Positions 11,193 through 35,559 are shown, counted from the first letter of the stretch. The stretch is 42,084 nucleotides of DNA from Burkholderiaceae bacterium (GCA_041751715.1 JBGSWY010000345.1:1-42084); one strand, 5' to 3'. The notes: generated by a model not told the origin, from the sequence alone. Numbers and translations: made by a program.

Positions 11193-11197
11193 GTCCC

Positions 11198-13126
11198 ATG
11201 TGCGGCATCGTCGCCATCATTGATCTGCGTTCGCGCCGGCCTGTCGACCGCGACACGCTGGTTCGCATGAACGAATCACAACACCATCGCGGTCCGGATG
11301 AAGGCGGACTTCACCTGGCCCCCGGCATCGGCCTCGGACACCGTCGGCTTTCGATCATCGATCTCGCCACCGGCCAGCAGCCGCTGTACAACGCCGACCG
11401 CTCAGTAGTCGTGATCTTCAACGGCGAGATCTACAACTATGGGGAGTTGATCACCGAGTTGAGCACGCTCGGCTACGTGTTCAGCACCCGCAGCGATACC
11501 GAAGTCATCGTGCATGCGTGGGAAGCGTGGGGCGAGCGATGCGTCGATCGCTTGCGCGGCATGTTTGCGTTCGTGCTGTGGGACGAGAAACAGCAGACAG
11601 CGTTTCTTGCGCGCGATCGATTGGGAGTGAAGCCGCTGTTTTACGCCGAGCTACCTGACGGCTACTTGATCGTCGGCTCCGAGCTGAAGTCACTGCTCGC
11701 ACATGGCGCACTCCGGCGCGAGATCGATCCGCTGGCGGTCGAAGATTATTTCGCGTTCGGTTACGTGCCCGAGCCGCGGACGATTTTCGGCGCTGCGCTG
11801 AAGCTGCCGCCGGCCCATACGCTGACGGTCCGGCGCAGTGCGCCGGTACCGGCGCCGCGCGAGTACTGGGATGTGGTGTTTACCGGCTCGAGCACGTTGA
11901 CGGCCGAGCAGGCCGGCGCCGAGCTGATCGATCGCCTGCGAGAAAGCGTCCGGCTGCGCATGATCTCCGAAGTACCGCTGGGCGCGTTTCTTTCCGGCGG
12001 TGTCGATTCGAGCGCAGTCGTGGCGATGATGGCGGAGACATCGGCGGCGCCGGTGAACACGTGCTCGATTTCGTTTTCCGATGCGCAGTACGACGAGTCG
12101 AAATATGCGCAGCAGGTGGCGCAGCGCTACCGCACCCGGCACACCGTCGAGCGCGTCGAAAGCGATGATTTCGATTTGATCGACCTGCTCGCACGTCTGT
12201 ACGACGAACCGTATGCGGACAGCTCGGCAATCCCCACCTACCGCGTGTGCGAGCTGGCGCGCAAGCACGTGACGGTCGCACTATCCGGCGATGGCGGCGA
12301 CGAAAGCTTCGGCGGTTATCGTCGTTACCGGCTGCACATGCTGGAGGAGCGGATGCGGCAACCGCTGCCGCTGGCATTGCGCCGGCCGGTGTTCGGCCTG
12401 CTCGGCCGCGTGTATCCAAAAGCCGATTGGGCGCCGCGCGTACTTCGCGGCAAGACCACTTTGCAGGCGCTCGCGCGCGATTCGGTGCAGGCGTACTTTC
12501 ACAGCATGTCGATTCTGCGCGACGATATGCGCAGCCGTTTGTATTCGAACTCGTTCAAGGCCGAGCTTGCCGGCTACAACGCGATCGAGGTGTTCCAGCG
12601 TCACGCGGCAAAGACCAGCCAGGACGATCCGCTGGCGCTGATTCAGTACCTGGACATCAAGACCTACCTGGTCGGCGATATCAATACGAAGGTCGACCGT
12701 GCCAGCATGGCGCATTCGCTCGAAGTACGTGAGCCGTTAATGGATCACCTGCTGGTGGAATGGATTGCCAGCCTGCCATCGTCGTTCAAGCTGCGCGGCG
12801 GCGAAGGAAAGTGGTTGTTCAAAAAGGCGATGCAACCGTATTTGCCGAACGAGGTGCTGTACCGACCGAAGATGGGCTTCGCGGTGCCGCTCGCATCGTG
12901 GCTGCGCGGGCCGCTGCGTGAGCGAGTGCGCGCAGCCGTGCTCGGCGATGCCCTGGCCGGCACCGGACTGTTCGACCCGAGTTATCTGCGCCAACTGCTC
13001 GATCAACATCAATCGGGCCGGCGCGATCACAGCGATCCGCTCTGGTCGTTACTGATGTTCGAGGCTTTCGTCCGCCAGGGGGGAGAGCAGCAACCGAGCG
13101 CCCATCTGAGCAGGCTATCGGCGTGA
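11198..13126 (+). CDS. asnB: Asparagine synthase-family glutamine amidotransferase (XrtA-system amidotransferase type)
   Basis: The start at 11198 gives an MCGI Ntn nucleophile. Also HHRGPD, HRRLSIIDL, FNGEIYNY, SDTEV, PP-loop FLSGGVDSS and LSGDGGDESFGGYRRY. Confidence 0.9.
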   Translation: MCGIVAIIDLRSRRPVDRDTLVRMNESQHHRGPDEGGLHLAPGIGLGHRRLSIIDLATGQQPLYNADRSVVVIFNGEIYNYGELITELSTLGYVFSTRSDTEVIVHAWEAWGERCVDRLRGMFAFVLWDEKQQTAFLARDRLGVKPLFYAELPDGYLIVGSELKSLLAHGALRREIDPLAVEDYFAFGYVPEPRTIFGAALKLPPAHTLTVRRSAPVPAPREYWDVVFTGSSTLTAEQAGAELIDRLRESVRLRMISEVPLGAFLSGGVDSSAVVAMMAETSAAPVNTCSISFSDAQYDESKYAQQVAQRYRTRHTVERVESDDFDLIDLLARLYDEPYADSSAIPTYRVCELARKHVTVALSGDGGDESFGGYRRYRLHMLEERMRQPLPLALRRPVFGLLGRVYPKADWAPRVLRGKTTLQALARDSVQAYFHSMSILRDDMRSRLYSNSFKAELAGYNAIEVFQRHAAKTSQDDPLALIQYLDIKTYLVGDINTKVDRASMAHSLEVREPLMDHLLVEWIASLPSSFKLRGGEGKWLFKKAMQPYLPNEVLYRPKMGFAVPLASWLRGPLRERVRAAVLGDALAGTGLFDPSYLRQLLDQHQSGRRDHSDPLWSLLMFEAFVRQGGEQQPSAHLSRLSA

Positions 13127-18652: not shown

Positions 18653-19952
18653 CGGGCGAGCGCGTCGGGGCGCGCCCCGGCACCTGGTCTTGAACCGGTG
18701 CTGGGCTCTCGCTGCGAACGACATGCCACGTGACGACCAGCGCGATCATCAGGAAGTACGGCATGTCCCAGTAGGCAAGGTTGAGAAACATGCCGCCGAC
18801 GAAGTACCCCACTAAGCTCACCTGAATCATCACCGCCAGCCAGTACGCCCACTTGGACTCCGGAACATCGCGCGTGCGTTTGATGATGCGACGGCTCAAC
18901 TGCCACGTCAGTATCCAGAAGATCAGGAACAATGCGAGCCCGACGAACCCATGCTCGCCCAGCACCTGAAAGTAAATGCTGTGGGCCGAGTGGGTCAGGT
19001 CATAGTCCGGAAAGTAGCGGCGGAAGACTTCCTGCGTATACGGCTCGAAACCGCCGCCTACCAGCGGCCGGTCGACCGCCAGGTTGTACAACATCGTCCA
19101 CGTATTGAGGCGGCCCAGGGCCGAGGCGTCCTGCTCATATTCGCCGATCGAGCTCATTCGCTCTCCCCATTCCGGCGGGATGAACGGGTAAAAAGCGATA
19201 CCGAACAAGAGCACGGCCAGCCCCAGCCAGATCTTGTGTTTCGACTTGAGCCATAAGAAGCCGAACATCGCGATGATCGCGAGGAAGCCCCCCCTCGAGT
19301 AACTGCCGATCACGCATACCACGCACAACACGATCGACACGACGATCGCGGCACGCATCCAGCGCCTGGTGGACATGATGTAAAGGTAGGCGAACAGCGG
19401 GATCGTCATGATCACCGCGAGCGCAAGTGCATTGTTATCGGAGATGAACGATTCGGGCGGCCCCCAGACCAGGAACTCGCCGCCGCTCGCCAGCGTAAAC
19501 GCGCCGCCCTTGACGCCGAAAAAGCCGACCGAAAAAACGATGATCAATATCAGCCACATCACGTGCCCGCGCTTGTACAGCGTAATTAATGCGAGGAATG
19601 TGACGAACAGAATTTTTACCACCCGCTCGAGCATTTCGACAGCTCGCTCGGGCTCGAGCGCGAAAAGTGTGGTCAAGCACATCCAGCCAACGAACGCGAG
19701 CAACACCCAGGTTGCTGCGCCGCCTTTCAATTGACGCGGCTCCCGCGTGAGAAAAAGCGCTATGACTGTGGTGACCGCGACGACGAACGCGAACGGAAAC
19801 GTGTAAGCGAATCCCCAAGCGGCGCGATGTGGGTTCATCAGGCTTAACCAGACCCAGAAGAAGATACCGACCGCAGGGTTACGCAGGATGAACGGAATCC
19901 CGCCGGCTACGATCAGAAACATTGCGATGTCGCGCATGCCGTCGATTATCAA
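18639..19952 (-). CDS. O-antigen ligase/Wzy-like polytopic membrane protein (exosortase-A-associated putative O-glycosylation ligase type)
   Basis: About 10 predicted TM segments. GSYSRGGFLAI and AHSIYFQVLGEHGFVGL follow the Wzy_C/O-antigen-ligase pattern, with a large loop (EYEQDASALGRLNTW). Confidence 0.75.
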   Translation of the reverse strand: MIIDGMRDIAMFLIVAGGIPFILRNPAVGIFFWVWLSLMNPHRAAWGFAYTFPFAFVVAVTTVIALFLTREPRQLKGGAATWVLLAFVGWMCLTTLFALEPERAVEMLERVVKILFVTFLALITLYKRGHVMWLILIIVFSVGFFGVKGGAFTLASGGEFLVWGPPESFISDNNALALAVIMTIPLFAYLYIMSTRRWMRAAIVVSIVLCVVCVIGSYSRGGFLAIIAMFGFLWLKSKHKIWLGLAVLLFGIAFYPFIPPEWGERMSSIGEYEQDASALGRLNTWTMLYNLAVDRPLVGGGFEPYTQEVFRRYFPDYDLTHSAHSIYFQVLGEHGFVGLALFLIFWILTWQLSRRIIKRTRDVPESKWAYWLAVMIQVSLVGYFVGGMFLNLAYWDMPYFLMIALVVTWHVVRSESPAPVQDQVPGRAPTRSPVISS

Positions 19953-21787
19953 TCCATCTTGAACGTGGGAGCGTGCCGCTCAAGCCAGTGTTCTAGCATC
20001 ATCAACACCCACACCATCTCGCCGTAAAAGCCCGAATGTTCGCGCAGGCGATTTGAAAATAGATCGTGCACCAGCTCACGACGAATGATTCCACGCTCGG
20101 CCAGCCGCGCGAGTGAATCGGAGGCAAACCGGGCCAGCGCTTCGTCCCGCACAAGCCACGGTCCGAATGGCAGTCCGAAGCCGTGTTTTTTCTTGCGAAT
20201 GACTTGCTCCGGAAGAAAATCACGCAGCGCGTCCTTGAAGAAATATCTCAGCGTGAGGCCGCGAACCTTCATCGATGCCGGAAGGCTAAGGGAAAAGTCG
20301 AGCAGTTTGTCATCGAGAAACGGGAATCCGACCGCCTGTTTTGCCAGTTGCGCGGTGAGCCTGACCTTCGGCAAATCGCTGTCGGTCAGCGTAAAGCGCC
20401 AGTCGTAAGCGAGCATTCGGTTGACGATCGATTGTGCTCGGTTCACGTGGTAGACCTCGCGCTGCAGCGTGCGCGGCTCGGTGCTGTCAACTCGGCCCAG
20501 GAGCGTCGACGTGAACACTGAACTGGCGCCAAAGCGATCGAGCAGGTTATAAGACTCCATACGCTCGGGCATCGGCATGCGAGCCTGCTCGACATACCGG
20601 CCCAGCTTCCTGATCCCCGGAATATCGCGTGCGCCGTCGGGTCCGAGCAGCCAAGGTTCGACCGCGCGCCTGCGGAGCAGGGGGGGGATTGCATCATAGG
20701 CACCGAACACTTTCTGGCGTGCATATCGGGTGTTGCCACCGAACAGCTCGTCCCCGCCGTCGCCGGCCAGAAGCTTTTCAACGCCATGCTCGTGCGCAAG
20801 GCGAGCACAGTAGTAAGCCGGAAGTGCCGATGAATTGCCGAACGGTTGATCGTAGTGCGAGGCGACGCGTGGAATCGCGCGCACCAGCTCGTCCGGAGTC
20901 AAGTAGTGTTCGTGCAGCTTGGCGTTGAAATGCTTGGCTGCGAGGCGTGCATAAGACATTTCATCGTATCCGCTCGCCTCGAAGCCGATCGAGAAGGCGT
21001 CGACGGGCTTGTCCGTCGCGAGCGCCAGGTGCCCGACCACGGTCGAACTATCGGTGCCGCCGCTCAAGAACGCCCCGATGCGCGGCGTCGTTGTTTCCCT
21101 TTCAACCGATTGTCGAAGCAGTGTGCGAAATCGCTCGCGTTCGACTCTGAGGTTGAATGTTTTCTTCTCACTGAACGCCGGCTGCCAGGTCGGGCTCAAG
21201 TGCAAGCCGCGTGAGTTGAACGAAAGCTGTGTGGCCGCCTGCAGCCGCTGAACCCCGCGAAAGATCGTGCGCGGCGCCGGGACGACGTGAAAGTAAACGT
21301 AGTTAAAGATCGCCTGCAGGTCGATCTCGCGCCGGGCTGCGTGCCCCACGGCGTCGGCCCGATCGGAAAACTCGAACCTTGAACCTTGGACCGACCAGCA
21401 GAGGGGAATTACTGCAAAGCGATCGGTTACCAGCGTAACGCTGCCCTGCGTCAAGTCGATGTGAACAACTGCAAAGCGGCCGCGCAGCGGCTCGAAATTC
21501 GGAACGCCGCTGCCGCCCTGTGCAAGGCGCACGACCTCTTCGGCCGTTAGCGCGCGCATATCCTCGTCACGCGGCTCACCGAACACTGCCGTGACGCTGC
21601 GGTCGGCAACGTGAACCTGGCCGCAATTCGATTGCAGCTTCATCGAGAACGCGGGCGCGGATACGACGCTGTGTCCTGCCGCCGTTTCATGCACCGGCGC
21701 GCTTGCCGGATGTCTCGATGCAAGTCCGTGATCGAACCAGCCACAGACTGCCGGCGCCGCGCGGTCATCCGACAAGAGCGACACCAC
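19949..21787 (-). CDS. Asparagine synthase-family protein with a degenerate N-terminal glutaminase domain
   Basis: The synthetase half is intact (FLSGGTDSS PP-loop, LAGDGGDELFGGNTRY). The N-terminal half lacks the M-C start and the RGPD, RRLSI and NGEIYN motifs found in the two paralogs. The ORF opens with GTG at 21787. Confidence 0.75.
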   Translation of the reverse strand: MVSLLSDDRAAPAVCGWFDHGLASRHPASAPVHETAAGHSVVSAPAFSMKLQSNCGQVHVADRSVTAVFGEPRDEDMRALTAEEVVRLAQGGSGVPNFEPLRGRFAVVHIDLTQGSVTLVTDRFAVIPLCWSVQGSRFEFSDRADAVGHAARREIDLQAIFNYVYFHVVPAPRTIFRGVQRLQAATQLSFNSRGLHLSPTWQPAFSEKKTFNLRVERERFRTLLRQSVERETTTPRIGAFLSGGTDSSTVVGHLALATDKPVDAFSIGFEASGYDEMSYARLAAKHFNAKLHEHYLTPDELVRAIPRVASHYDQPFGNSSALPAYYCARLAHEHGVEKLLAGDGGDELFGGNTRYARQKVFGAYDAIPPLLRRRAVEPWLLGPDGARDIPGIRKLGRYVEQARMPMPERMESYNLLDRFGASSVFTSTLLGRVDSTEPRTLQREVYHVNRAQSIVNRMLAYDWRFTLTDSDLPKVRLTAQLAKQAVGFPFLDDKLLDFSLSLPASMKVRGLTLRYFFKDALRDFLPEQVIRKKKHGFGLPFGPWLVRDEALARFASDSLARLAERGIIRRELVHDLFSNRLREHSGFYGEMVWVLMMLEHWLERHAPTFKMD

Positions 21788-21797
21788 CTTTGCAGCG

Positions 21798-22961
21798 TTA
21801 CCGGGCGAGGCGTTGAAACGCGCCGGGACTTAACGGTGTCAATTGCGTCAATCCGGGCAACTCGACCGAAGCGGCCGCGTGTCGATACTCGCGCGTTGGT
21901 AGATCGTTCTTCTTGAAGGTGCTGACGGCGCCCGAAGAGCCGGCGAGCTTGCTGCCGGGGTGAAGCCGATAGTCGAACTGCGCCGGATTGACGAAGTCAT
22001 CCAAGCGTGCCTGAACATTGTTCTTGACCACCGCCGGCGCCTTCATATCGAGTTCGCCGCGCCCGACCATGATGTTATTGGTGATTACCGCCTCGGCCGG
22101 GCCGGAACGAACCGAAATGAAGGCGCCACCCTGCGATCGATCGTTGACGAGCGTGTTGAAAGCGATGTGCGCATGATTGACCGGCCAGCGATAACCTTCG
22201 GCGCCAAAGGAAACCAGCACCGGGTTTTCGGTCTGGTTACCCTGCTGAATCAGGTTGCCGATTGCTCTTAAGGCGCCTCCGTTCGGAAGATCCAGCTCGT
22301 AGCTCGACGAGCCGCCTTCGCCGGTCAGGCGGCTGTATAAAACCGATGTTGCCTTGGCGCGGCTTTTCAGCAAGTGGCCGGTGCGAGAGCGCGCGAAGTA
22401 GCTGCCGGTGACTTCGAGCACGGCGATCGTTCCGGCATACAAATTGTGACTCTGCCCATCTCCTGCGCCGTTGTTCACAAACGTCGAGTCGGCGACGCGC
22501 AGTTCGATGCTCGAATCGTTCGACGTGAGAATGCCGTTCTCGTTGTCTTCGAACAGGCATTTAATAATCGTCAGCCGGCCACCTTCGAGCCGAATCCCCG
22601 CGCCGTTGAGATCCGGCACGCGCGCGCCGGAAAAGGCGAGATTCTCGATCGTTGTGTTACTGCCGCGGACGACGAAAATTCCTTTTCCTTCTGCCATCGC
22701 TACGCCGTCGGCTACGACCCGCGGGCGTTCGCCGATGCCACGAATCACCAGATTGTTTTGTGTCCATACGGCAACGTCGCGCCGATAGTCGCCCGCCTCG
22801 ACTTCGACGACGTCACCGTCGCGCGCAATCTCGGCGGCCTTTTGGAGCGTGCGAATCTCGTGTGAAGGGCCGACGCGGATGATGTTCGACGCCGCGGCGG
22901 CAAGCGGCACGCTCGAGACAACGAAAGCGATCAGCGAAACAAATCGGCGCATGTGTTGCAT
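21798..22961 (-). CDS. Secreted right-handed parallel beta-helix protein (candidate polysaccharide lyase/epimerase)
   Basis: Signal peptide MQHMRRFVSLIAFVVSSVPLAAAAS. Repetitive beta-helix coils (IENLAFSG, IIKCLFEDNENGILTSN, VADSTFVNNGAGDGQSHNLYAG, AIGNLIQQGN, ITNNIMVG). Confidence 0.65.
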   Translation of the reverse strand: MQHMRRFVSLIAFVVSSVPLAAAASNIIRVGPSHEIRTLQKAAEIARDGDVVEVEAGDYRRDVAVWTQNNLVIRGIGERPRVVADGVAMAEGKGIFVVRGSNTTIENLAFSGARVPDLNGAGIRLEGGRLTIIKCLFEDNENGILTSNDSSIELRVADSTFVNNGAGDGQSHNLYAGTIAVLEVTGSYFARSRTGHLLKSRAKATSVLYSRLTGEGGSSSYELDLPNGGALRAIGNLIQQGNQTENPVLVSFGAEGYRWPVNHAHIAFNTLVNDRSQGGAFISVRSGPAEAVITNNIMVGRGELDMKAPAVVKNNVQARLDDFVNPAQFDYRLHPGSKLAGSSGAVSTFKKNDLPTREYRHAAASVELPGLTQLTPLSPGAFQRLAR

Positions 22962-22994: not shown

Positions 22995-24137
22995 ATGCGG
23001 CGCGGTCGATGCAGCTCAGGATTCGTATTGTCACCATTGGTCATTCTCGGCGCTTCGATTACCGGCCTTGCTGTAGCAAGAGACGCGCGCGCGCGGGGGC
23101 TAAATCCGGTCGTTGTCGATTCGGACGACGGGCCAGCGTTCCATAGCCGATGGGTAACGGCGGTCAACGTCGTTTCGATGACCCAGGCAGCGATGCGTGA
23201 CCGCATTCTGAGCCTCGGCGGCGCGGAAGCCGCATTGATTGCGACGTCCGATCATTGGATTCGTTTTGTGATCGATCATCGGGCGAACCTGACTTCGGCG
23301 TACAAAACCATCGTGCATCCCGACAACGCCACGCTCGAAGTTTGCCTAGACAAGATGGCGTTTGCGCAATGGTGCAATGAAGCGGTGCTGCCGTGTCCGC
23401 AAGCCTGGGTGCCGGGCCGTCAGGCGCGTCCGGCATCCATGCGCTTTCCGTTTTTGTTACGGCCTGTGCGAACGCTGCACGGCCGCCGCGAGCTTGATTT
23501 GCCCAAGGCGGTAGAGGCACAGGACGAGGCGGAGCTTGCGCACTGGCTGTCTCAATTCGAGGTTAATGGTGTGGTCGCGCTGGTCAGCGAATCGCTGCTG
23601 GGGCGGGCACTCGAGCAATACTCGGTGCCGTTTGCCCGGTGCGATGGCCAAACGCTGATGTTTACCGCGCGCAAAGTCCGTCCTGCCGCGCGGCTTTGTC
23701 AGACCGGCACCTGCGTCGAACTGTGCGTCGACGAGCGCGCCGAGCAGTTAGGCAGGGCTGCTATTGAACGCCTGGCCTACTTCGGAATTGGCGAAGTCGA
23801 GATACTGCGCGACACGCACAGCGGACGCGACTACCTGATAGAGATTAACGCCAGACCCTGGTTGCAATATGCGCTGGCACCGGCGTCGAACCACGATTTC
23901 CTGGGGCTCGTGTTGGGGCTTTTGCCGTCCAGCAGGAAACCTGCGGTGCGTGCAGGAAAGACCTGGATCGATCTGTATCAGGATCTTTTCGTCGCCTTTT
24001 CCCGCTCGATCGGCGTGGTTCGCCACGGGCGTCTCGGACTCTTTGCGTATCTTCGATCGCTTGTTCGCTGCAATGTGTTCGCGCTGTTCGATTGGCGCGA
24101 TCCGCGTCCGTTTCTGCAGTCCTTGCGGCATCGATGA
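22995..24137 (+). CDS. ATP-grasp family carboxylate-amine ligase-like protein
   Basis: Pre-ATP-grasp N-terminus LVILGASITGLAVARDARARGLNPVVVD. C-terminal GIGEVEILRDTHSGRDYLIEINARPW (E-x-N metal-binding motif). The start may instead be the in-frame TTG at 23028. Confidence 0.7.
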   Translation: MRRGRCSSGFVLSPLVILGASITGLAVARDARARGLNPVVVDSDDGPAFHSRWVTAVNVVSMTQAAMRDRILSLGGAEAALIATSDHWIRFVIDHRANLTSAYKTIVHPDNATLEVCLDKMAFAQWCNEAVLPCPQAWVPGRQARPASMRFPFLLRPVRTLHGRRELDLPKAVEAQDEAELAHWLSQFEVNGVVALVSESLLGRALEQYSVPFARCDGQTLMFTARKVRPAARLCQTGTCVELCVDERAEQLGRAAIERLAYFGIGEVEILRDTHSGRDYLIEINARPWLQYALAPASNHDFLGLVLGLLPSSRKPAVRAGKTWIDLYQDLFVAFSRSIGVVRHGRLGLFAYLRSLVRCNVFALFDWRDPRPFLQSLRHR

Positions 24138-26777: not shown

Positions 26778-26815
26778 GACAAGATAAACGGTCAACTCCC
26801 GAGGGTCCCATACAT

Positions 26816-26832
26816 TTGGTATGCACGTTGCG
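26816..26832 (+). promoter_or_regulatory. Candidate sigma54 (-24/-12) promoter element
   Basis: TTGGTATGCACGTTGCG has GG (26818-19) and GC (26830-31) separated by exactly 10 nt, within TGG...TTGC. It lies about 170 nt upstream of the ATG at 27004, in the only large non-coding gap. Several non-core positions differ from the consensus. Confidence 0.3.
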
Positions 26833-27003
26833 CTTCGGGCCGAGCGTAGAAGTTCCCCACCATCCGCATCACGTCATGCATTAGGCCGATTGCGTAATTG
26901 CTCGCTTCTCTTCTATGGCGTTAAATGCAGCGCAGCAAAGGGCAGGCGGTTACGCGCTGCTAAAAATATGCAAACAAATGTGCCGCTGTAAAAAAGGGAG
27001 TGC

Positions 27004-27381
27004 ATGAAACAGGTGGGGCGCCGTACAGTTTTGCGTTTCGGGTTCGGGGCGGGAGCGCTATTGCTCCTAGGCTGCGATGTTAGTGAACAAGATCCGTCTG
27101 CAGCAGAGGCTCCGGCACCACCTCCGCCTGCGCTATCACCACCTCCGGCGTCAGCCGCCTGGGTGGTCAATCCTCCGTCGTTCGCCGTCGGTAGTGGCTC
27201 GACATTCAATCTGGCCACCACGTTGCCGGCGGGCGTTGCTCGAGGAGGAGCTTTCGGCGTCAGTTCCGCCGGGGCCACTCTTCCCACCGGAATGACGTTG
27301 ACGAAGCCGGGAATACTGTCGGTGGGATCTGCCACAGTGGGCAGCGTCACCGGCGTCGTCTTCACTTACGCATCTCCCTGA
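27004..27381 (+). CDS. Small Tat-signal lipoprotein with Pro-rich linker and Ig-like (putative He_PIG-type) domain
   Basis: GGGAG Shine-Dalgarno 5 nt upstream. GRRTVLRFGFGAGALLLLGC combines a twin-Arg motif, an h-region and a lipobox Cys. Then APAPPPPALSPPPA, then FNLATTLPAGVARGGAFGVSSAGATLPTGMTLTKPGILSVGSAT. Confidence 0.65.
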   Translation: MKQVGRRTVLRFGFGAGALLLLGCDVSEQDPSAAEAPAPPPPALSPPPASAAWVVNPPSFAVGSGSTFNLATTLPAGVARGGAFGVSSAGATLPTGMTLTKPGILSVGSATVGSVTGVVFTYASP

Positions 27382-27472
27382 GCACCGCTGGTGTTCCTTC
27401 GCATGCCGATCAGTTCAGACTGGACGGTGCCGTTGATCTACGCGAACTAACGCGAACAAGCGGACTCTTGAA

Positions 27473-29551
27473 ATGCAGCGACGTCAGTTTTTAAAGGGTA
27501 CATCCGTTGCGCTTGCCGCAACCTTGACAGGTTGCGGTGGTGGTGGCGGTGAAAGTGCTGCGGCATCCAGTGCGCCGCCTCCGGCGCCGCCCGTCCCCGC
27601 TCCAGCCCCGGCGCCCGGCGCCGGACCTGCTGCGGGAGGCCTGCCGACGCTGACCCTGCATCCAACGCAAACCGGCACCGGGCCCTACATTGCGGCCGTG
27701 CTGCCACTGGAGGGTTTGGTTCCGGCGGCCCAGAGCCTCGACTCGCCAGACGATCCAAATGTGCGTTCCACCGTCGTCTCCAGATGGCCCGACGGCTCGG
27801 CATCGGTGGTCGTAGTGGCGGGTGAAACAAGCGTGACGCTCGGCACGTCCAGACAAATCCGCTTGCGCGCTGCCGCTGTCAACGCAACGCCGTTGAACGC
27901 GGCGCGAGTCGGTCAGCTCGTCTCGAATGTGACGGTCAACTGCGGCGCCCTCGGCTCGGCGGTCTTGAACGACTTCGCAACGCCGTCGAAAATCTGGTGG
28001 GCCAACGAGCGTGTCATCTGCTGCCGATATCGCGCCCCGGTCGGAGCGCACCCGACCCTGGAAGCAGTGGTCGACATTCACGCGTTTTCGTCGAATCGAG
28101 CGCTGGTCGAGGTGGTGGTCGAGAACTGCAAGATGGTAACTGCGACACCGACGCAGCCGGCCGCGGCTGCTTACACGGCAGCAGTGACGGTTAACGGCGC
28201 GGCGGTGACGAATGTTCAGTCCGCAAACGCTCCTGGCGGAACGCACCAAGCATTTCGTGCCTGGTACGCATCGAGCTGGGTCGGTGGCGACCCCGGCATT
28301 GACGTCACGCAGGACACTGGCTCGATGCAGGCGCATCCGCTGTTTTTCCGCGTGTGGCAAGGCGGCGGCAGTATGGCGGCGTACGCGGCCGATACCTATC
28401 AGCCATGGAGTGTCGGTCGCCACCCCGCAAGCAATATGGGCGGCGGCGGTGACTCCGCGTTCATCGGCCCGTTGCCCAAATGGGAAGTCCAGTATCTGCA
28501 AACGGGCGACAACCAAGCTCGACGCGCGGTGATTGCCTCAGCGCTGTCAGTGTTGAGCTTTAACGTCAACTATCGAGACGCGGGCACCGGACTTGTGCCG
28601 ACGTTCGATCAATTGACAAACAAGAATCAGCAGCAATTCGGATCCGACGCAGCCAGAGCGTGGCCGCACAGCACAGGCGCCGAGCCCTCGTGGGAGGTTG
28701 CACATCATCCGGCAGCAGGTTTGATGGCGTTCATGTGCCGCCCGTCGCCGGTATTCATCGAGATCGCGCAGAAAATCGCCGTGTGGAACGGAACCTGGTC
28801 GAGCGACAACGGCACCTTCGGGACCTACTATGAGACGCGCGGCAAGGCATGGGGCGTGCGGAGTCTGACGCATGCCATTTTTTTGACGCCGGATAGCGAC
28901 AACTGGAAGCAGCCGGCGCGTTCCGCGCTGTTTCGCAATTCGCAGTTGCTGAAAAGCTTTCAGGACGACCCCAAGTCCGTGCTCGGATTTGTGTGGGACT
29001 TCTCGCCTTCATTCGTGCAGAACTACGGCGGCTCCGGATTTACTCAACCGCTGTGGGAGCACCATTATCTAGTCACCGAGCTGCACAAGGCGGCGAGCGC
29101 AAGGGTACTTAGCGGTGCGGAGCAATCGGCCCTGACTGCGCTTGCCGACTGGGCAGCGGCCCAACCGGTTCGATACATCAACGAATCCACCGGCGGTGAA
29201 TGGCGAATTTTTTACTACGTGACGCCGGCCGGCCGCAGTGGGACAACGATAGATTCGTTGCCCACCTGGGGCCAACAGTTCGCGTGGAGCTACAGCGACG
29301 CACCGCCGCCGGTGTCGGGCCCGTGGATGAACGGCAGCGGGACATCTTATGCGTCCGCCAGTGTGGAAAACAACGCAGGCGCTTATTACCCGTCGTACTT
29401 CTGGGCGGCACTCGTGGCCGCAGTTGAGCGCGGCGTGGCCGGCGCGGATGCGGCCTGGAGCAAGGTCACGACCAACGTAACTAATCTGTCAGCGTGGAGC
29501 GCGGGGTTCGGTCCCGAGCCGCGCTGGGGTGCATATCCAAGGAATAAATAA
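27473..29551 (+). CDS. Large Tat-signal lipoprotein of unknown function (candidate polysaccharide-active enzyme)
   Basis: MQRRQFLKGTSVALAATLTGC is a near-consensus Tat motif (RRxFLK) plus a lipobox, followed by a Gly/Pro/Ala linker. The N-terminal beta-rich part (VVSRWPDGSASVVVVAG) is followed by a W/H-rich, helix-like C-terminal part. I recognise no named family with confidence. Confidence 0.6.
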   Translation: MQRRQFLKGTSVALAATLTGCGGGGGESAAASSAPPPAPPVPAPAPAPGAGPAAGGLPTLTLHPTQTGTGPYIAAVLPLEGLVPAAQSLDSPDDPNVRSTVVSRWPDGSASVVVVAGETSVTLGTSRQIRLRAAAVNATPLNAARVGQLVSNVTVNCGALGSAVLNDFATPSKIWWANERVICCRYRAPVGAHPTLEAVVDIHAFSSNRALVEVVVENCKMVTATPTQPAAAAYTAAVTVNGAAVTNVQSANAPGGTHQAFRAWYASSWVGGDPGIDVTQDTGSMQAHPLFFRVWQGGGSMAAYAADTYQPWSVGRHPASNMGGGGDSAFIGPLPKWEVQYLQTGDNQARRAVIASALSVLSFNVNYRDAGTGLVPTFDQLTNKNQQQFGSDAARAWPHSTGAEPSWEVAHHPAAGLMAFMCRPSPVFIEIAQKIAVWNGTWSSDNGTFGTYYETRGKAWGVRSLTHAIFLTPDSDNWKQPARSALFRNSQLLKSFQDDPKSVLGFVWDFSPSFVQNYGGSGFTQPLWEHHYLVTELHKAASARVLSGAEQSALTALADWAAAQPVRYINESTGGEWRIFYYVTPAGRSGTTIDSLPTWGQQFAWSYSDAPPPVSGPWMNGSGTSYASASVENNAGAYYPSYFWAALVAAVERGVAGADAAWSKVTTNVTNLSAWSAGFGPEPRWGAYPRNK

Positions 29552-30730
29552 ATGGCACTTCTTACTTCTTCGCCAGCGACGCTTTCGGTCACATCGTTTC
29601 CGTATTCATTGCCTCCGCCCGGTCAAGCGATGTTGATTGGCGCCAACTCGCCGGACAGCGTCAGGCCGTCGACGCACACGACGTACGAGTGGAACTATGC
29701 GCTGTTCTTCTTCTATGGCGGTGGCACCTTCGTCGACGATTATTCGGCCGGCGGAGCCTACGTAATCGCCGGCTCGGGAGGGCATGCCGTGCCGCCCAAC
29801 TTTGGTGGCTGCTTATTCGACTTCGCTGATGCGACGTGGAAGCGGGTGGATAACGCCAATGGCATGCCGTGGATAAACCGGGATTTGAACGCTCCCGGGT
29901 TTTCGGGAGAAATCAATAGCGTCGGCGAGATCAACTGGCCTGGCGTATCCGCCGGCATCCCGGCTCCGTCGCACCTGTACGGCAACGTGTTGGCGCTGTC
30001 GGCAGCCAACGGAGGCGGCAGCCGAGGGTCGGCACTGATCCTGCGCTCAATGGCGGCCGGATATAGCTCGAACTACGGTTCCGGATACGCGCATCGGTTC
30101 GATGTTGCCACCGGCCTGTGGACTCGCCAATCGACCAATGCATCGATTGGAAACAGCGGCTTTCGCACCGCGTGCTACGACGGGGTAACGAATCGCTACT
30201 ACATGATCCGTTATGAGTTGCACGAAAGCTCCAACCTGGACTATCTGGATGGTGCCGACTGGACCTGGAAAACAGTCAGCATCGCGACTCCGGCCGCTGT
30301 CGGCAATAACAAGTCAGCGTTCATCGATGACTCGCGGCGGCTGCTGATCGTACAGACGTCGGCCGGAAGGCTGCGCGCGCTTGACTTGAACAACATGGGT
30401 GCAGGGTTCGTAACCCTCAGAACGGTTGGCAATCTTCCGCCCGATAATCAGTCGCAGTGGCACTTGTATCCGGCCGATGGCTGCTGGTACACGTACATAG
30501 GCAACGGCGGCAACAGCTTGCACAAGATTCAGCCGCCCGCGGCGAACCCGCTCACGGAAACATGGACGGTAAGCACCGTTTCGATCGGCGGGGCGGCTCT
30601 GGCGTCGCAGCCAACCGAAGCGATTCAGAACGGCTCGGTTCATAACACAAGATTTTTTTATGTCCGGCCGATCGGATGCTTTGCATGGATCGCCGGCGAA
30701 GGCAATAAGGTCGCCATCCTTAAGCCTTGA
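29552..30730 (+). CDS. Hypothetical protein, beta-propeller/Kelch-like by sequence texture, no signal peptide
   Basis: The ATG abuts the upstream TAA with zero spacer. Repeated G-G...W/Y strand-like segments (FFFYGGGTFVDDY, YVIAGSGGH, ATGLWTRQ, RYYMIRY, CWYTYIGNGGNS, FFYVRPIGCFAWIAG). The N-terminus MALLTSSPATLSV is not signal-like. Confidence 0.5.
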   Translation: MALLTSSPATLSVTSFPYSLPPPGQAMLIGANSPDSVRPSTHTTYEWNYALFFFYGGGTFVDDYSAGGAYVIAGSGGHAVPPNFGGCLFDFADATWKRVDNANGMPWINRDLNAPGFSGEINSVGEINWPGVSAGIPAPSHLYGNVLALSAANGGGSRGSALILRSMAAGYSSNYGSGYAHRFDVATGLWTRQSTNASIGNSGFRTACYDGVTNRYYMIRYELHESSNLDYLDGADWTWKTVSIATPAAVGNNKSAFIDDSRRLLIVQTSAGRLRALDLNNMGAGFVTLRTVGNLPPDNQSQWHLYPADGCWYTYIGNGGNSLHKIQPPAANPLTETWTVSTVSIGGAALASQPTEAIQNGSVHNTRFFYVRPIGCFAWIAGEGNKVAILKP

Positions 30731-32824: not shown

Positions 32825-32935
32825 ATTCCATGCGAGCCGAAGGCGGATGCGCGATATTGTAGTGTTCATGGACAACGTTTCCGGGTGTGCCTTCGTTTAC
32901 GAAATACTCGTAGCACGAGTCGGACCAGCTATCTG

Positions 32936-34891
32936 ATGTGCGGTTTCACTGGATTTCTGACTTTCGACGGGACTGAACACAGCACGCTTGTGCACATCGC
33001 CGGCGCAATGGCGCAAACGCTGGTGCACCGCGGCCCGGACGATTCAGGGACGTGGGTCGACCCGGCGTGCGGCATCGCGCTCGCCTTTCGCCGTCTGTCG
33101 ATCATCGACCTGTCACCCGCCGGCCATCAGCCGATGCGCTCGGCCGACGGCCGCTACGTGATCGTATTCAATGGTGAGATTTACAACTTTCTCGAGTTGC
33201 GCAGGGAACTGGAGCAGAGCGGCGAGGCGCCGGCGTGGCGCGGCCATTCCGACACAGAAGTCTTGTTGGCTTTGATTACGTCGCGCGGGCTCGATAGAGC
33301 GCTCGAGCAGTCGATCGGGATGTTCGGGTTTGCGCTATGGGATACGCACAGTCGCACATTGCACCTCGCCCGCGACCGGATAGGCGAGAAGCCGCTGTAT
33401 TACGGATGGGCAGGCCGCACTTTTCTATTCGGGTCCGAGCTGAAAGCGCTGCGAGCGCATCCGCACTGGAGCGCTGAGATCGATCGCGGCGCATTGGCGC
33501 TGTTCATGCGATACAACTACGTTCCAGCGCCGCATTCGATCTACCGCGGAGTATCGAAGGTGCTGCCCGGGAATACCCTGACGCTGCCGTGGCTGTCACG
33601 TGAACCCATCATCAAATGTTATTGGTCGGCGCGCACTGTGGCAGAGCGCGGCTTTTCCGATCCTTTCCGAGATGGCGAGGCGGCCATTGGCACTGCGCTT
33701 GACGCGCTCCTGCGCGACGCGATCGGCAAGCAAATGGTGGCCGATGTTCCGCTCGGCGCATTTCTATCGGGCGGTATAGACAGCTCCACCGTGGTGGCTT
33801 TGATGCAGGCGCAGAGCATGCGGCCGGTCAAGACGTTCACGATCGGTTTTCACGAGCAGGAGTACAACGAGGCGGTGAACGCCGCCGAAGTGGCGCGGCA
33901 CCTCGGCACCGATCACACCGAGCTCTATGTAACGCCGAGCGAGGCAAGGGAAGTCATACCCAGACTGCCCACGATCTACGATGAGCCGTTTTCAGACTCT
34001 TCGCAAATCCCCACGTTTCTGGTGGCGCAGTTGGCCCGCTCGCAAGTGACGGTTGCTTTGTCCGGCGATGGCGGCGATGAATTGTTTGCCGGCTATACAC
34101 GTTATGCGTTCGGGCAGCGGCTATGGAACAAGCTGTCGCGCTTGCCTCCTGCCGTTCGACGTGCGCTCGCCACCTCCGTCAAGAAGGTGTCGGTCGAGCG
34201 CTGGAGCATGATTGCCAAGCCGATGCTCGCTGTTGCCCCGCGGCGCTACCGGATTGGACTGGCGGGTGACAAGATTCACAAGCTGGCGGACGTGCTGGCG
34301 CACGAGACTCTCGATTCGCTTTATCGCGATCTGGTCTCGCACTGGAAGCCGCCACTGGACATCGTACTGGCCGACAACGAGCCGACGACGATGCTCGATT
34401 CGGCCGGCGATCTTGCAATCCGCGATCCGGTGGCCAGGATGATGCTGCTCGACCTCGTGACTTATCTGCCCGATGACATTCTGGCGAAGGTCGATCGTGC
34501 GGCGATGGCGGTGAGCCTGGAAACCCGCATTCCGCTGCTCGATCATCGAGTGGTCGAATTCGCAGCGAGAATTCCACTCGCGGCCAACCTGAATCGCGAT
34601 GGTGCCAAGGGGATTCTGCGCAACGTGTTGTACCGGTATGTGCCCAGGGCGTTGGTCGATCGTCCGAAAATGGGCTTCGCGGTGCCGATCGACAGTTGGC
34701 TGCGTGGGCCGCTGCGCGAGTGGGCCGACGATCTGCTTGATCCGGCTCGCCTGCGCCGCGAAGGATATCTGAAGCCGGAACTCATTCAACAGCGGTGGCA
34801 GGAGCACAAGAGCGGGCAGCGCAACTGGCACTATCCGTTGTGGGATGTACTGATGTTTCAATCGTGGCTGCAAAGCACGCACGGACGGTAA
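32936..34891 (+). CDS. asnB: Asparagine synthase (glutamine-hydrolysing) family amidotransferase
   Basis: The ATG at 32936 gives an MCGF Ntn nucleophile. Also HRGPDDSG, FRRLSIIDL, FNGEIYNF, SDTEV, FLSGGIDSS and LSGDGGDELFAGYTRY. Confidence 0.9.
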   Translation: MCGFTGFLTFDGTEHSTLVHIAGAMAQTLVHRGPDDSGTWVDPACGIALAFRRLSIIDLSPAGHQPMRSADGRYVIVFNGEIYNFLELRRELEQSGEAPAWRGHSDTEVLLALITSRGLDRALEQSIGMFGFALWDTHSRTLHLARDRIGEKPLYYGWAGRTFLFGSELKALRAHPHWSAEIDRGALALFMRYNYVPAPHSIYRGVSKVLPGNTLTLPWLSREPIIKCYWSARTVAERGFSDPFRDGEAAIGTALDALLRDAIGKQMVADVPLGAFLSGGIDSSTVVALMQAQSMRPVKTFTIGFHEQEYNEAVNAAEVARHLGTDHTELYVTPSEAREVIPRLPTIYDEPFSDSSQIPTFLVAQLARSQVTVALSGDGGDELFAGYTRYAFGQRLWNKLSRLPPAVRRALATSVKKVSVERWSMIAKPMLAVAPRRYRIGLAGDKIHKLADVLAHETLDSLYRDLVSHWKPPLDIVLADNEPTTMLDSAGDLAIRDPVARMMLLDLVTYLPDDILAKVDRAAMAVSLETRIPLLDHRVVEFAARIPLAANLNRDGAKGILRNVLYRYVPRALVDRPKMGFAVPIDSWLRGPLREWADDLLDPARLRREGYLKPELIQQRWQEHKSGQRNWHYPLWDVLMFQSWLQSTHGR

Positions 34892-34979
34892 CCAGTCGCG
34901 AGGTGCGTTCTGCGCACTGACCCGAAAGCTAGGTTGCTCGAACCGTCCCGCTGCTCGGCTGACTAGCCGGATCCCGCAA

Positions 34980-35420
34980 GAAAGACAGCAACCTCGAAGC
35001 TGCTGTCCTCCACGATCAGGATCGGATGGTCTCTTTCCAAACTGCTTCATTCCGCGCAGAACGGGCAACTCATGTCCTTCGGCGTCGATCTCGACGAAAG
35101 CCAGCGCCCAGGCTCCGGGGTTACCGTTCCGGTGAGCATTTCAAATTCAACTTCATCTGTGCGAAGAGTGTGGTTTCGCACCTTAATCCCGAGATAGCGG
35201 CGCTTCACTCTTGTTGCCATCGCTTCGGCAATGTCCAGCCAGCCTTTTCATGTTCGTTTCATGAGTACACGGGCTCAAAGACCATAACGTGACTATGGCG
35301 CACCTTGTGCTGATCGCCAGTGAAGGCAGTCATAATCGCGAATGTCATAGTTCGCATGAGGTTGGGAAATCCGAATCGTGAGGCCGCGAAGAGCGTTTGC
35401 GCTGGAACCAACGCCTTCGG
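34980..35420 (-). pseudogene. Possible decayed FkbM-family methyltransferase remnant (frameshifted, internally deleted)
   Basis: My minus-strand translations give fragments in three frames: ...HVMVFEPVYS*, ...DEVEFEM..., and ...ALAFVEIDAEGHELPVLRGMK. These resemble the VxxFEP, GExxF and lKiDvEGaElxVLxG blocks seen in the intact FkbM-like gene at 36755-37591. No intact ORF, and the sequence is less GC-rich by eye. Confidence 0.3.
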
Positions 35421-35559
35421 TCAAGCGGCGCCCGATGCACGGCGCGACCTATGCTACATAGGCAGACGCTGGTGGCACTCGATACAGGACTCATGGTTGA
35501 AGTTCTCGCTGGTGAAAACTTGCACACTTGAGCGGCAATGACATGAAGCCGCATACCTC

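Follow-up and report, generated by a model that had tools for sequence, protein, structure and literature searches.

A candidate envelope module of two predicted Tat lipoproteins and a signal-less propeller protein in XrtA-type EPS loci of Burkholderiales

Three adjoining genes in an XrtA-type EPS locus of a Burkholderiaceae bacterium encode proteins, here termed A, B and C, which may act together as one envelope machine of the locus, with A docking C and with co-export through Tat; we give this reading an even chance of being right. A is a small protein with an Ig-like domain and B a larger protein with a beta-rich and a helical part, both starting with a twin-arginine signal and a lipobox, while C is a beta-propeller protein with neither signal peptide nor lipobox and with a short conserved tag at its N-terminus. 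The title 'Tat-lipoprotein module', under which a preliminary description of this DNA had grouped the three genes, thus suits A and B and does not suit C. That description had also overlooked the missing signal of C, the A-B and B-C gene fusions found among relatives, and the copies borne by phages.

Gene layout and surroundings

The window, by which we mean the whole stretch of 42,084 nucleotides that was analysed, carries the trio as three genuine co-directional ORFs, exactly at the coordinates first reported (Table 1). The ATG of C abuts the TAA stop codon of B in the same frame, so that a hidden N-terminal extension of C is impossible. The GC content of the trio (0.61-0.64 vs ~0.60) is unremarkable. 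None of the three proteins has a Pfam or NCBIfam match over the curated threshold, the scan returning only sub-threshold matches to TAT_signal (B) and Kelch_4 (C), which bears out the earlier placement of the trio outside any named family; nor does any of them match a characterised family unrelated to polysaccharides. The recognisable sugar and EPS genes that had been described around the trio belong to an XrtA/PEP-CTERM EPS locus, in which ten NCBIfam/TIGRFAM models score over their cut-offs. A, B and C themselves match no curated XrtA-associated NCBIfam/TIGRFAM family and are not members of this set by that standard.

The 226-bp region upstream of gene A had been called the only large non-coding gap, which is wrong, as positions 34892-35559 (668 bp) are also without a credible ORF. 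The 226-bp region is probably a promoter or operator region. In an alignment with the loci L001, L003 and L005 the invariant columns are confined to a block of ~45 nt at ~26862-26905, around CGTCATGCATTAGG, which is common to three related loci and which in the relatives contains the palindrome TAATGCATTA. The region has no Rfam match. A sigma54-like TGG-N8-TTGC at 26817 was dropped as a candidate, being unconserved and not rare (12 found vs 5.8 expected).

Table 1. Features of the trio and its surroundings (nucleotide positions refer to the window, aa positions to the respective protein)
Feature	Position	Strand	Remarks
Intergenic region, 226 bp	26778-27003	+	upstream of gene A; probable promoter or operator region
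Gene A	27004-27381	+	125 aa ORF
A signal	aa 1-24		GRRTVLR...LLGC
A Pro/Ala linker	aa 25-52		
A He_PIG-type Ig-like domain	aa 53-125		
Gene B	27473-29551	+	692 aa ORF
B signal peptide	27473-27535	+	MQRRQFLKGTSVALAATLTGC; near-consensus Tat motif RRxFLK and lipobox LTGC
B disordered Gly/Pro/Ala tether	after signal, to ~aa 57		pLDDT <50 at residues 1-54
B beta-sandwich region	~aa 58-300		model strands at residues 59-280
B 12-helix alpha/alpha toroid	~aa 336-692		model helices at 336-679
Gene C	29552-30730	+	392 aa ORF
C N-terminal tag	29552-29593	+	MALLTSSPATLSVT; conserved, proposed docking motif
XrtA-associated models in neighbours			TIGR03007, 03018, 03016, 03015, 03006, 03019, 03087, 03088, 03108, 03097

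The Ig-like protein A and the putative glycan-active protein B

The N-terminus of A in the window, MKQVGRRTVLRFGFGAGALLLLGC, shows the twin-arginine signal and lipobox ascribed to it: the Tat motif GRRTVLRFGFGAGALLLLG places the arginine pair in the n-region, and the lipobox LLGC ends at Cys24, the Leu at -2 of L-L-G-C24 being a slight deviation from [LVI][ASTVI][GAS]C. Of 30 unique separate copies of A, 28 have the arginine pair, and at least 25 have the pair together with the lipobox. By its signal motif A is a lipoprotein, lipidation being predicted. Its Ig-like domain finds support at the level of the family, as 12 of 14 A orthologs match He_PIG (PF05345; best E 5.6e-5), although the copy in the window stays unmatched even at E<=10.

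B begins with MQRRQFLKGTSVALAATLTGCGGGGG, in which RRxFLK is followed by the lipobox LTGC with Cys21, and its Tat motif, MQRRQFLKGTSVALAATLTG, likewise holds the arginine pair in the n-region; A and B both fit the Tat pattern S/T-R-R-x-F-L-K with a moderately hydrophobic h-region behind it. The match of B to Pfam TAT_signal (E 0.0011, 19.2 bits) stays under the 22.7 cut-off, which counts against the preferred reading. Across the B family the N-terminal consensus is MxRRxFL...LxGCGG, with RR in nearly all complete cellular N-termini and a lipobox in most copies. In the AlphaFold model of B (pLDDT 90.2, pTM 0.89) the Gly/Pro linker that had been noticed behind the signal is disordered, and the division into a beta-rich N-terminal and a helical C-terminal half, read beforehand from the sequence, is confirmed.

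The top eight Foldseek matches of B in the PDB are all chains of PcRGLX, the PL26 exo-rhamnogalacturonan lyase (5xq3, 5xqg, 5xqj, 5xqo), with E-values of 9e-5 to 4e-3 and probabilities of 0.60-0.99, but with low TM-scores (0.23-0.34) and ~10% identity. PcRGLX is built of beta-sheet domains with an alpha/alpha toroid behind them, an order that B may share according to its model. The initial guess of a PL26/PcRGLX-like protein appears to hold at the level of the fold and does not hold at that of sequence: a 36-sequence B profile linked to no PDB chain (hmmsearch) or Pfam family, phmmer against PDB sequences gave no PcRGLX match for B, and a scan of the 36 B-family members at E<=10 gave no PcRGLX-type Pfam domain. 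CAZy families being defined by sequence, B falls outside PL26. It differs from PcRGLX, moreover, in being ~200 residues shorter, a predicted bacterial Tat lipoprotein, and the proposed partner of the propeller C and the Ig-type adaptor A. Next in the ranking come other alpha/alpha toroid enzymes, GH105/YteR, the GH88 unsaturated glucuronyl hydrolase and PL27 (5noa), which match the helical domain of B locally (probability ~0.5-0.98, 160-293 aligned columns); these are single-domain proteins of ~350 aa, cytoplasmic or periplasmic, without the beta domain of B and without sequence similarity to it. The family of B, comprising 1,893 clusters, is large and undescribed. Among 36 of its sequences, of 45-86% identity, 54 columns are invariant, and Arg, His, Tyr, Trp, Glu and Asp are prominent in them.

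The low TM-scores to PL26 and the missing CAZy-type sequence link mean that B could be non-catalytic. B and C might then be lectin-like proteins on the outside of the envelope that bind or anchor EPS, or else PEP-CTERM glycoproteins, serving as a scaffold or tether and, in phages, as nothing but a receptor-binding protein; we consider this unlikely while according it some weight. In keeping with this, neither a catalytic motif nor a CAZy sequence family was detected in B, its TM-scores to enzymes are low, relatives carry Ig-like, PKD and PG-binding accessory domains, and the propellers matched by C are generic interaction scaffolds. However, invariant columns dominated by the residues named above are typical of an active site or of sugar subsites, and the best structural matches of B are all enzymes acting on uronate-containing glycans. 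Many EPS loci also encode a dedicated glycanase: AlgL, PslG, BcsZ and the PelA hydrolase domain are periplasmic or envelope glycan cleavers encoded in the cluster of their own polymer, as proposed here for B, although their folds and families are unrelated to it, their export is by Sec, and each works as one protein without adaptor, tag or propeller. In the reading preferred here, B would be a lipid-anchored carbohydrate-active protein, and its likeliest role is that of a glycanase, either a lyase or a hydrolase, by which EPS is trimmed, released or brought to size; alternatively the complex may bind EPS at the envelope. Going by the modelled fold, B may be a lyase with a uronate substrate.

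The propeller protein C and its docking tag

The model of C (pLDDT 92.3) is a Kelch-like six-blade beta-propeller, in agreement with its first description as propeller-like. Foldseek matched it to generic propellers with a probability of 1.00, the best TM-scores (0.55-0.67) being to the Kelch domain of LZTR1, and in its sequence the Kelch motif appears only as a sub-threshold Kelch_4 match at E 0.011. Long proteins of the B family carry a C-terminal extension whose homology to C is supported by hhalign at 97-98%, with E-values of 1e-10 to 4e-13. Every separate C-like partner lacks a signal and starts with the tag, the consensus of which is ~L-x-S-x-P-x-T-[IV]-x-V, also written ~[RL][IL][ST]SxPxT[IV]xV, whereas fused B-C proteins and C homologs with a signal of their own lack it. 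In the isolated model of C the tag is disordered, with a pLDDT of 42 for residues 1-10.

The conservation expected of a module was found, the trio being kept as a unit in many genomes, usually in XrtA-type EPS loci, and being conserved in such loci of Burkholderiales. In most cellular loci B is immediately preceded by A, and its stop codon is where a C-like gene begins. A and B are fused in frame in 12 unique cases, and B and C in L010, L038, L040, L044 (first copy), L047, L051, L052, L054, L072 and L073. The tag is accompanied by an A domain, separate or fused, in ~35 non-redundant loci vs 0 without A, a rule with zero exceptions once the loci were checked manually, even though the co-occurrence partly reflects shared ancestry and not in every case an independent event. 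Conversely, A is absent from six loci with a B-C fusion, from L026 and L046, where the C adjoining B has its own signal, from two or three loci without C (L015, L016, possibly L007), and from L027-L031, five loci that have a C gene and lack B. From the two kinds of fusion and from the co-occurrence of A and tag we infer a physical association of A, B and C. Binding of the tag by A is predicted from their co-occurrence; the Ig-like domain of A would be the docking socket for the N-terminal beta-strand tag of C.

The receptor of the tag might instead be B or the A-B interface, with C hitchhiking on the signal of B and with A otherwise employed, for example as a polysaccharide-binding Ig module. 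This arrangement, to which we assign a small but real chance, would agree with the in-frame start of C at the stop codon of B, with the frequent B-C fusions, and with the common presence of He_PIG and other Ig-like domains in glycan-active surface proteins. It sits poorly with a tag that occurs only together with the A domain and with B-C fusions that lack both. In L009, B (MKIISKPVQITIS) is itself tagged, as is C (MKILSKPTTISIT), both are signal-less, and the sole signal is on A (MKTSRRGFLGF). In L029-L031, C bears an A-like RR signal in place of the tag, the A domain and B having been deleted from the same slot, so that Ig domain, B and tag are gone at once.

Export through Tat

Outside the tagged separate form, export of C is predicted for all arrangements. 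Besides the RR signal of C in L029-L031, the fusion of C to B in L010 and L040 places it behind an RR-lipobox signal, the stand-alone C of L027 and L028 has a Sec lipoprotein signal, and in L046 a Sec-type B is found with a C that has a Sec lipoprotein signal. Since C-family proteins can also use Sec (L026, L027, L028, L046), Tat is not intrinsically needed by C, a point against the preferred reading. In the favoured reading, A and C would dock in the cytoplasm, folded signal-less C would be taken across the inner membrane via Tat by A, by B or by both, A and B would be lipidated after crossing, and the propeller would work beside B. Assembly of the complex in the cytoplasm with C as a passenger would account for the use of Tat by a cofactor-less polysaccharide module. 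The rationale originally offered, folding or cofactor loading, probably needs replacing. Sequence searches gave no cofactor-binding family for the trio, and the comparison of loci speaks for cytoplasmic assembly of a protein complex as the reason for Tat.

It is improbable that C stays in the cytoplasm, whether to take part in a step there or to chaperone assembly, with the tag only helping B to fold or assemble for a short time or having another use, and with an unrelated reason for Tat such as fast folding or a metal. C does lack a signal, the tag also occurs in phage versions, for which export is needless, and chaperone genes often come after phage tail-fibre genes. Yet in all other architectures the homologous C domains have a predicted location outside the cytoplasm, be it through fusion to an RR-lipobox B, an RR signal or a Sec lipoprotein signal, and the stable B-C fusion of ~1150 aa speaks for a permanent partnership, not for a transient chaperone.

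Tat hitchhiking is an established mechanism, known from HybO/HybC, DmsA/DmsB and PaoABC, in which a signal-less subunit travels with a signal-bearing partner (PMC4273604, PMC10924467), as proposed here for C. C is a signal-less subunit encoded beside signal-bearing partners with which it probably associates. Known hitchhikers are cofactor redox enzymes, whereas the cargo here would be of carbohydrate type, with a lipoprotein as carrier and with docking apparently by a portable pair of Ig domain and N-terminal tag that a covalent fusion can replace. Counted against the preferred reading are the lack of tat genes within the window, the location of three long cellular loci (L009, L015, L018) outside recognisable EPS clusters, and the split form found in cells, in which A and B are separate lipoproteins and the A:C pair would still have to meet B.

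Phage-borne copies

Relatives of B occur on 11 IMG/VR contigs, 6 of which (L073, L074, L075, L077, L080, L081) also carry phage genes such as terminase, portal, adaptor, amidase or tail fibre/spike genes, and on the metagenome contig L063 an A-B fusion adjoins virion structural genes. Deposited phage genomes yielded no homolog. The phage copies are signal-less and consist either of an A-B fusion with a tagged C or of a B-C fusion. In L073 the module directly follows a tail fibre/spike-type gene; in L074 and L081 their place is between the terminase and portal genes or immediately behind terminase, and a location of the phage module in the virion is thus putative. It is presumably an EPS-binding or EPS-degrading component. 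The presence of B-family genes on tailed-phage contigs recalls tail-spike and tail-fibre depolymerases, most of which are beta-helix trimers, unlike the B-family module. As the tag is kept in phages, where there is no export, it would serve assembly, and to propose that C is exported in cells goes one step beyond this.

The homologs found on phage contigs beside genes for terminase, portal and tail spike might suggest that the trio is a prophage tail-fibre cassette, domesticated or in decay, which entered the EPS locus accidentally and plays no part in EPS biology, but this is very improbable given the conserved RR-lipoprotein signals acquired by the cellular versions, the syntenic slot PLP decarboxylase - trio - TPR shared by relatives down to 46% identity, the XrtA-type EPS genes beside the trio in 15 of ~18 long cellular loci, the unremarkable GC content and a window free of phage genes.

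Implications

A further reading, which we put forward tentatively, is that a He_PIG-type Ig domain and a ~12-residue N-terminal beta-strand tag form a portable connector linking B, as a new glycan-active enzyme, to a propeller. The connector would be swappable with a covalent fusion, bacteria would place Tat lipoprotein signals on the Ig adaptor and so bring passengers without a signal through Tat, phages would assemble an EPS-targeting component with the same connector, and B would found a PL- or GH-like family of ~1,900 clusters. If true, the trio would be the first example of Tat hitchhiking that is both cofactor-free and polysaccharide-related.

Genomic setting of the three genes

The three co-directional open reading frames of the preliminary description, here A, B and C, are present in the window at exactly the coordinates given there and sit within an XrtA/PEP-CTERM EPS locus that resumes downstream of them (see table). 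Their neighbours encode a chain-length determinant (TIGR03007), a tyrosine kinase (TIGR03018), an outer-membrane protein (TIGR03016), an ATPase (TIGR03015), a deacetylase (TIGR03006), a FemAB protein (TIGR03019), stp1 and stp2, an amidotransferase (TIGR03108), an O-ligase (TIGR03097), glycosyltransferases, a PLP decarboxylase, a flippase and others. Three asparagine-synthase-like amidotransferase paralogues are present, of which the first alone passes the TIGR03108 cut-off and the second gives only weak glutamine-amidotransferase domain matches; taken with FemAB, a weak ATP-grasp-like match and the PLP decarboxylase, they suggest that the EPS carries an amino acid or amide decoration. The locus also encodes a beta-helix protein of the right-handed type, which matches Pfam Beta_helix (E 1.3e-7) and nothing in NCBIfam. 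It may be an epimerase or another glycanase, and it accompanies the trio in many related loci (L001, L002, L005, L019-L022, L026 and L031; L handles denote related loci from genomes, metagenomes, viral contigs and a plasmid).

Features of the window discussed in the text
Feature	Position (nt)	Strand or direction	Size	Remark
XrtA/PEP-CTERM EPS locus	528 to about 26777			resumes downstream of the trio
Amidotransferase paralogue 1	11189-13126			asparagine-synthase-like
Amidotransferase paralogue 2	19949-21787	-		asparagine-synthase-like
Beta-helix protein	21798-22961	-	387 aa	right-handed
ATP-grasp-like match	22995-24137			weak
Conserved block upstream of A	~26862-26905		~45 nt	palindrome
A	27004-27381	co-directional with B, C	125 aa
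B	27473-29551	co-directional with A, C	692 aa
B/C junction	29549-29554			single TAA, B and C in the same frame
C	29552-30730	co-directional with A, B	392 aa
Amidotransferase paralogue 3	32885-34891			asparagine-synthase-like
Stretch without credible ORF	34892-35559		668 bp	before the next GT4 gene

The 226-bp spacer upstream of A had been taken for the only large non-coding gap, a description that does not hold, as another region, lying between the last of the three amidotransferase genes (AsnB-like) and the GT4 gene that follows, also lacks a credible open reading frame. The spacer contains a block, found also in L001, L003 and L005, that centres on a TAATGCATTA-type palindrome (window version: GTCATGCATTAGG) and could be an operator for a regulator; the remainder shows no conservation. 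An Rfam scan of the gap returned chance-level matches only, and sigma70 and terminator scans stayed at background level. PEP-CTERM systems are RpoN-dependent, which made a sigma54-type promoter worth considering, but the candidate (TGG-N8-TTGC at 26817) was dropped: the window has 12 such sites against 5.8 expected, and this one is not kept in relatives.

Conservation as a unit

Loci were mapped with HMMs for A, B, C and the fused C-like extension (23 from genomes, 40 from metagenomes and 11 from viral contigs, plus direct contig look-ups). Most cellular loci have A immediately before B, and in almost all a gene begins at the stop codon of B. Burkholderiales, together with other Betaproteobacteria, supply nearly all the source organisms (MAGs, Roseateles oligotrophus and strain AAP65), with one Myxococcaceae MAG and one Bdellovibrionaceae MAG as outliers. 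XrtA-type EPS genes accompany 15 of the roughly 18 non-redundant long cellular loci, and the slot occupied in the window, between the PLP decarboxylase and a TPR gene, is syntenic in closer relatives.

The trio also occurs as fusions. Eighteen of the 120 listed B-family proteins exceed 1000 aa, with an extension of ~380-450 aa following the B domain. This extension is homologous to C, for which only profile-profile comparison is convincing (hhalign 97-98%, E 1e-10 to 4e-13), a simple BLAST comparison of C with one long B-family protein being marginal (E 0.025) and hhalign against a single sequence giving 9.9% probability. In-frame B-C fusions were found in L010, L038, L040, L044 (first copy), L047, L051, L052, L054, L072 and L073, and the Ig domain of A is fused in frame onto the B N-terminus (…FTYxEP-GALPTLTLHP…) in 12 unique cases. 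All three parts are thus covalently joined somewhere, the classic signature of physically interacting partners, and the trio almost certainly forms one functional unit.

Gene order varies further in individual contigs. One metagenome contig (Ga0209490_10000084, loci L044/L045) carries tandem paralogous modules, a tagless B-C fusion followed by separate A, B and tagged C. The JGI contig of the C homologue P0169 has several B-sized genes (749, 708 and 703 aa), with propeller-sized genes of 414, 414 and 422 aa between the first two; two of these give faint Kelch matches and the third is P0169 itself, which has a Sec-type signal despite coming after the 708-aa gene. Frameshifts that break A, B or C in several long-read MAG contigs (L001/L008, L022, L023 and L031; 'MFD' and similar) are probably assembly errors and not pseudogenes.

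Protein architecture and the likely role of B

None of the three proteins has a match above the curated threshold in Pfam or NCBIfam. The N-terminus of A is MKQVGRRTVLRFGFGAGALLLLGC, and its family (alignment A3) conserves RRxxL and a lipobox, followed by a variable Pro/Ala linker and a C-terminal domain of ~75 aa that matches Pfam He_PIG ('putative Ig domain') in 12 of 14 orthologues (best E 5.6e-5), with no such match in the window copy. C leaves a below-threshold Kelch_4 trace in Pfam (E 0.011) and is confidently modelled (pLDDT 92.3) as a generic Kelch-like propeller, its best structural match being the LZTR1 Kelch domain (TM 0.55-0.67) and its first 11 residues being disordered in the model.

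B begins with MQRRQFLKGTSVALAATLTGCGGGGG and a Pro/Ala/Gly-rich stretch, its Pfam TAT_signal score (19.2 bits) lying below the 22.7 cut-off. Its model, likewise confident (pLDDT 90.2, pTM 0.89), places a disordered signal and tether at residues 1-54, beta strands at 59-280 and twelve helices at 336-679, the number expected for six helical hairpins. Among PDB structures the top eight matches are chains of PcRGLX, the PL26 exo-rhamnogalacturonan lyase (E 9e-5 to 4e-3, probability 0.60-0.99), followed by GH38 beta domains and then by GH105, GH88 and PL27 alpha/alpha toroids. TM-scores to PcRGLX are just 0.23-0.34 at about 10% identity, and the modelled likeness is confined to the level of fold and architecture. 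Nothing was found for B among PDB sequences with the single sequence or a 36-sequence profile, nor in Pfam with that profile. The PL26-like reading of B holds as a resemblance in fold, whereas by sequence B can be placed neither in PL26 nor in any other named family.

The B family is large, with 1,893 clusters at 50% identity at E<=1e-3 and 478 at E<=1e-30, and every member listed with a source name is labelled 'hypothetical protein'. Accessory domains of its multidomain relatives (Ig-like, PG-binding, Kelch) are uninformative. A plasmid search for B returned only a distant RTX 'calcium-binding protein' of 868 aa in Skermanella (L083, S. rosea plasmid pSR-1, 86292-88898, and a plasmid of Skermanella sp. 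TT6), whose B-like region shows 24% identity over residues 255-613 and which may be a secreted relative.

B is probably a carbohydrate-active protein acting on the EPS of its locus. Whether it cleaves the polymer or just binds it appears evenly balanced, and one rival is that the trio is a non-catalytic scaffold. The generic propeller C, the accessory domains of B relatives and the low TM-scores to PcRGLX sit comfortably with a scaffold; the lyase and toroid folds that B recalls, and the 54 invariant columns of its family, rich in Arg, His, Tyr, Trp, Glu and Asp, count against it. The invariant residues include H258, R262, H288, R368, H411, R456, E571, R578, Y639 and R653. As a cleaving enzyme, B would make the trio work in like manner to the dedicated glycanases of other EPS loci.

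A proposed docking tag linked to A

All separate C-like partners lack a signal peptide and start with a conserved motif, about L-x-S-x-P-x-T-[IV]-x-V, referred to here as the tag. It reads MALLTSSPATLSV in the window, MARLLSTPTTMWV, MATLLSKPINLVV and MASRITSLATTITV in cellular relatives and MANYSGPRRATSTGTTITV in a phage contig. The tag is kept even in partners whose remaining sequence has diverged past HMM detection. For these partners the match to the C profile is still at 95% across roughly its first 90 columns.

Not every locus counted below is a separate event in evolution, although split and fused forms do occur within the same C subtype. A tagged separate partner accompanies A, whether A stands alone or is joined to B, in about 35 non-redundant loci. 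Six loci have a B-C fusion without A and without tag, and in two (L026, L046) C has its own signal beside B, again without A or tag. The two or three loci that have no C lack A too, and the C genes that stand alone (L027, L028, L029-L031) have neither A domain nor tag. A tag without A was not found in any mapped locus after manual resolution of the apparent exceptions (L077, L011, L079, L058, L002 and L001), all of which were HMM, regex, start-codon or frameshift artefacts.

The Ig domain of A has a little better than an even chance of being the socket for the tag. The rival receptor is B, the immediate neighbour of C and its partner in fusions. In L009, however, the only signal is on a small A-like protein (MKTSRRGFLGF…, a textbook Tat motif), and neither B (MKIISKPVQITIS…) nor C (MKILSKPTTISIT…) has one, each of the two bearing the tag, an arrangement of which the A Ig domain as socket is the simplest reading. 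Phage-type and A-B-fused loci (L060, L062, L063, L080-L082 and others) have a conserved P-R-R ahead of the tag (…PRRxTSTxTTIxV), a twin arginine without any hydrophobic region.

Tat routing and the proposed export of C

The twin arginine is kept in 28 of 30 unique separate A copies, at least 25 of which also have the lipobox, and in nearly all complete cellular B N-termini. C, which had been counted among the Tat lipoproteins, turns out to be without any signal: its ATG comes straight after the TAA of B in the same reading frame (…YPRNK*MALLTSS…), leaving no room for a hidden one. Loss of this single in-frame stop, by one codon change or by read-through, would yield the B-C fusion of other lineages.

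A rival reading, in line with the missing signal, keeps C in the cytoplasm. C-family domains are nonetheless predicted to be extracytoplasmic in every arrangement with an unambiguous prediction: C is fused behind an RR-lipobox signal in L010 and L040, and carries a Sec lipoprotein signal when alone (L027, L028), before B (L026) or beside a B that is itself Sec-type (L046). In L029-L031, in the same syntenic slot, an A-like RR signal without lipobox Cys (MKEVGRRTVLCFGLASGTLSLLG…) is joined straight to the C body, and the Ig domain, B and tag are all missing, a natural deletion variant that is abundant (clusters of 11-22 member sequences). These arrangements make export as a passenger the most plausible fate of the tagged window C, and we infer with moderate confidence that Tat is its route. 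Tagged C would dock in the cytoplasm and then be carried through Tat as a hitchhiker, that is, bound to a signal-bearing partner. Such a mechanism is known for HybOC, DmsAB and PaoABC (PMC4273604, PMC10924467), and the trio would work in like manner. The cofactor loading earlier offered as the reason for Tat use thereby gives way, we infer, to pre-assembly of the complex.

Phage versions

Eleven IMG/VR contigs carry B relatives with 35-49% identity, the similarity starting at residue 25-57, and hence signal-less. Two layouts occur in them: [N-terminal adaptor]-A-B fused into one signal-less protein with a tagged C gene next to it, or B fused to C. Genes nearby include those for terminase large subunit, portal, head-tail adaptor and lysis amidase. 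A tail fibre/spike-type protein lies directly upstream in L073, and in the metagenome contig L063 the genes ahead of an A-B fusion encode a head protein and a virion structural protein (phrog_684, E 1.5e-209). A viral structure library gave two uncharacterised Caudovirales matches (probability 1.00), and deposited phage genomes contained no homologue of cellular or phage-type B. In L074/L076 and L081 the A-B and C genes stand just after the terminase or between terminase and portal, unlike the usual tail-fibre site, so that a virion role is not certain.

The retention of the tag in phages, whose proteins assemble in the cytoplasm, shows that it is an assembly device and not a secretion signal. 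Acquisition by phages of enzymes or binders aimed at host surface polysaccharide is common and fits B, with or without C, binding or cleaving EPS. That the trio is a prophage remnant is the weakest rival, suggested by these phage versions and at odds with the recurrent place of the cellular trio among EPS genes.

Significance

In Burkholderiales of soil and wastewater, flocs and biofilms form through XrtA/PEP-CTERM EPS systems, whose polymers and processing enzymes are, to our knowledge, largely uncharacterised. The literature searched holds no description of the trio genes in floc-forming Burkholderiales, and there appears to be no earlier account of the B family, of the Ig/tag connector or, within polysaccharide biology, of a Tat hitchhiker that lacks a cofactor. 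A docking tag of 12 residues with an Ig adaptor would account for the use of Tat by an envelope module without cofactors, would widen the scope of Tat hitchhiking past redox enzymes and would represent a small natural 'plug and socket' for the co-export of folded proteins. If B is a dedicated glycanase, it would found a new carbohydrate-active enzyme family, common to phages, and offer a handle on the structure of the polymer and on floc control.
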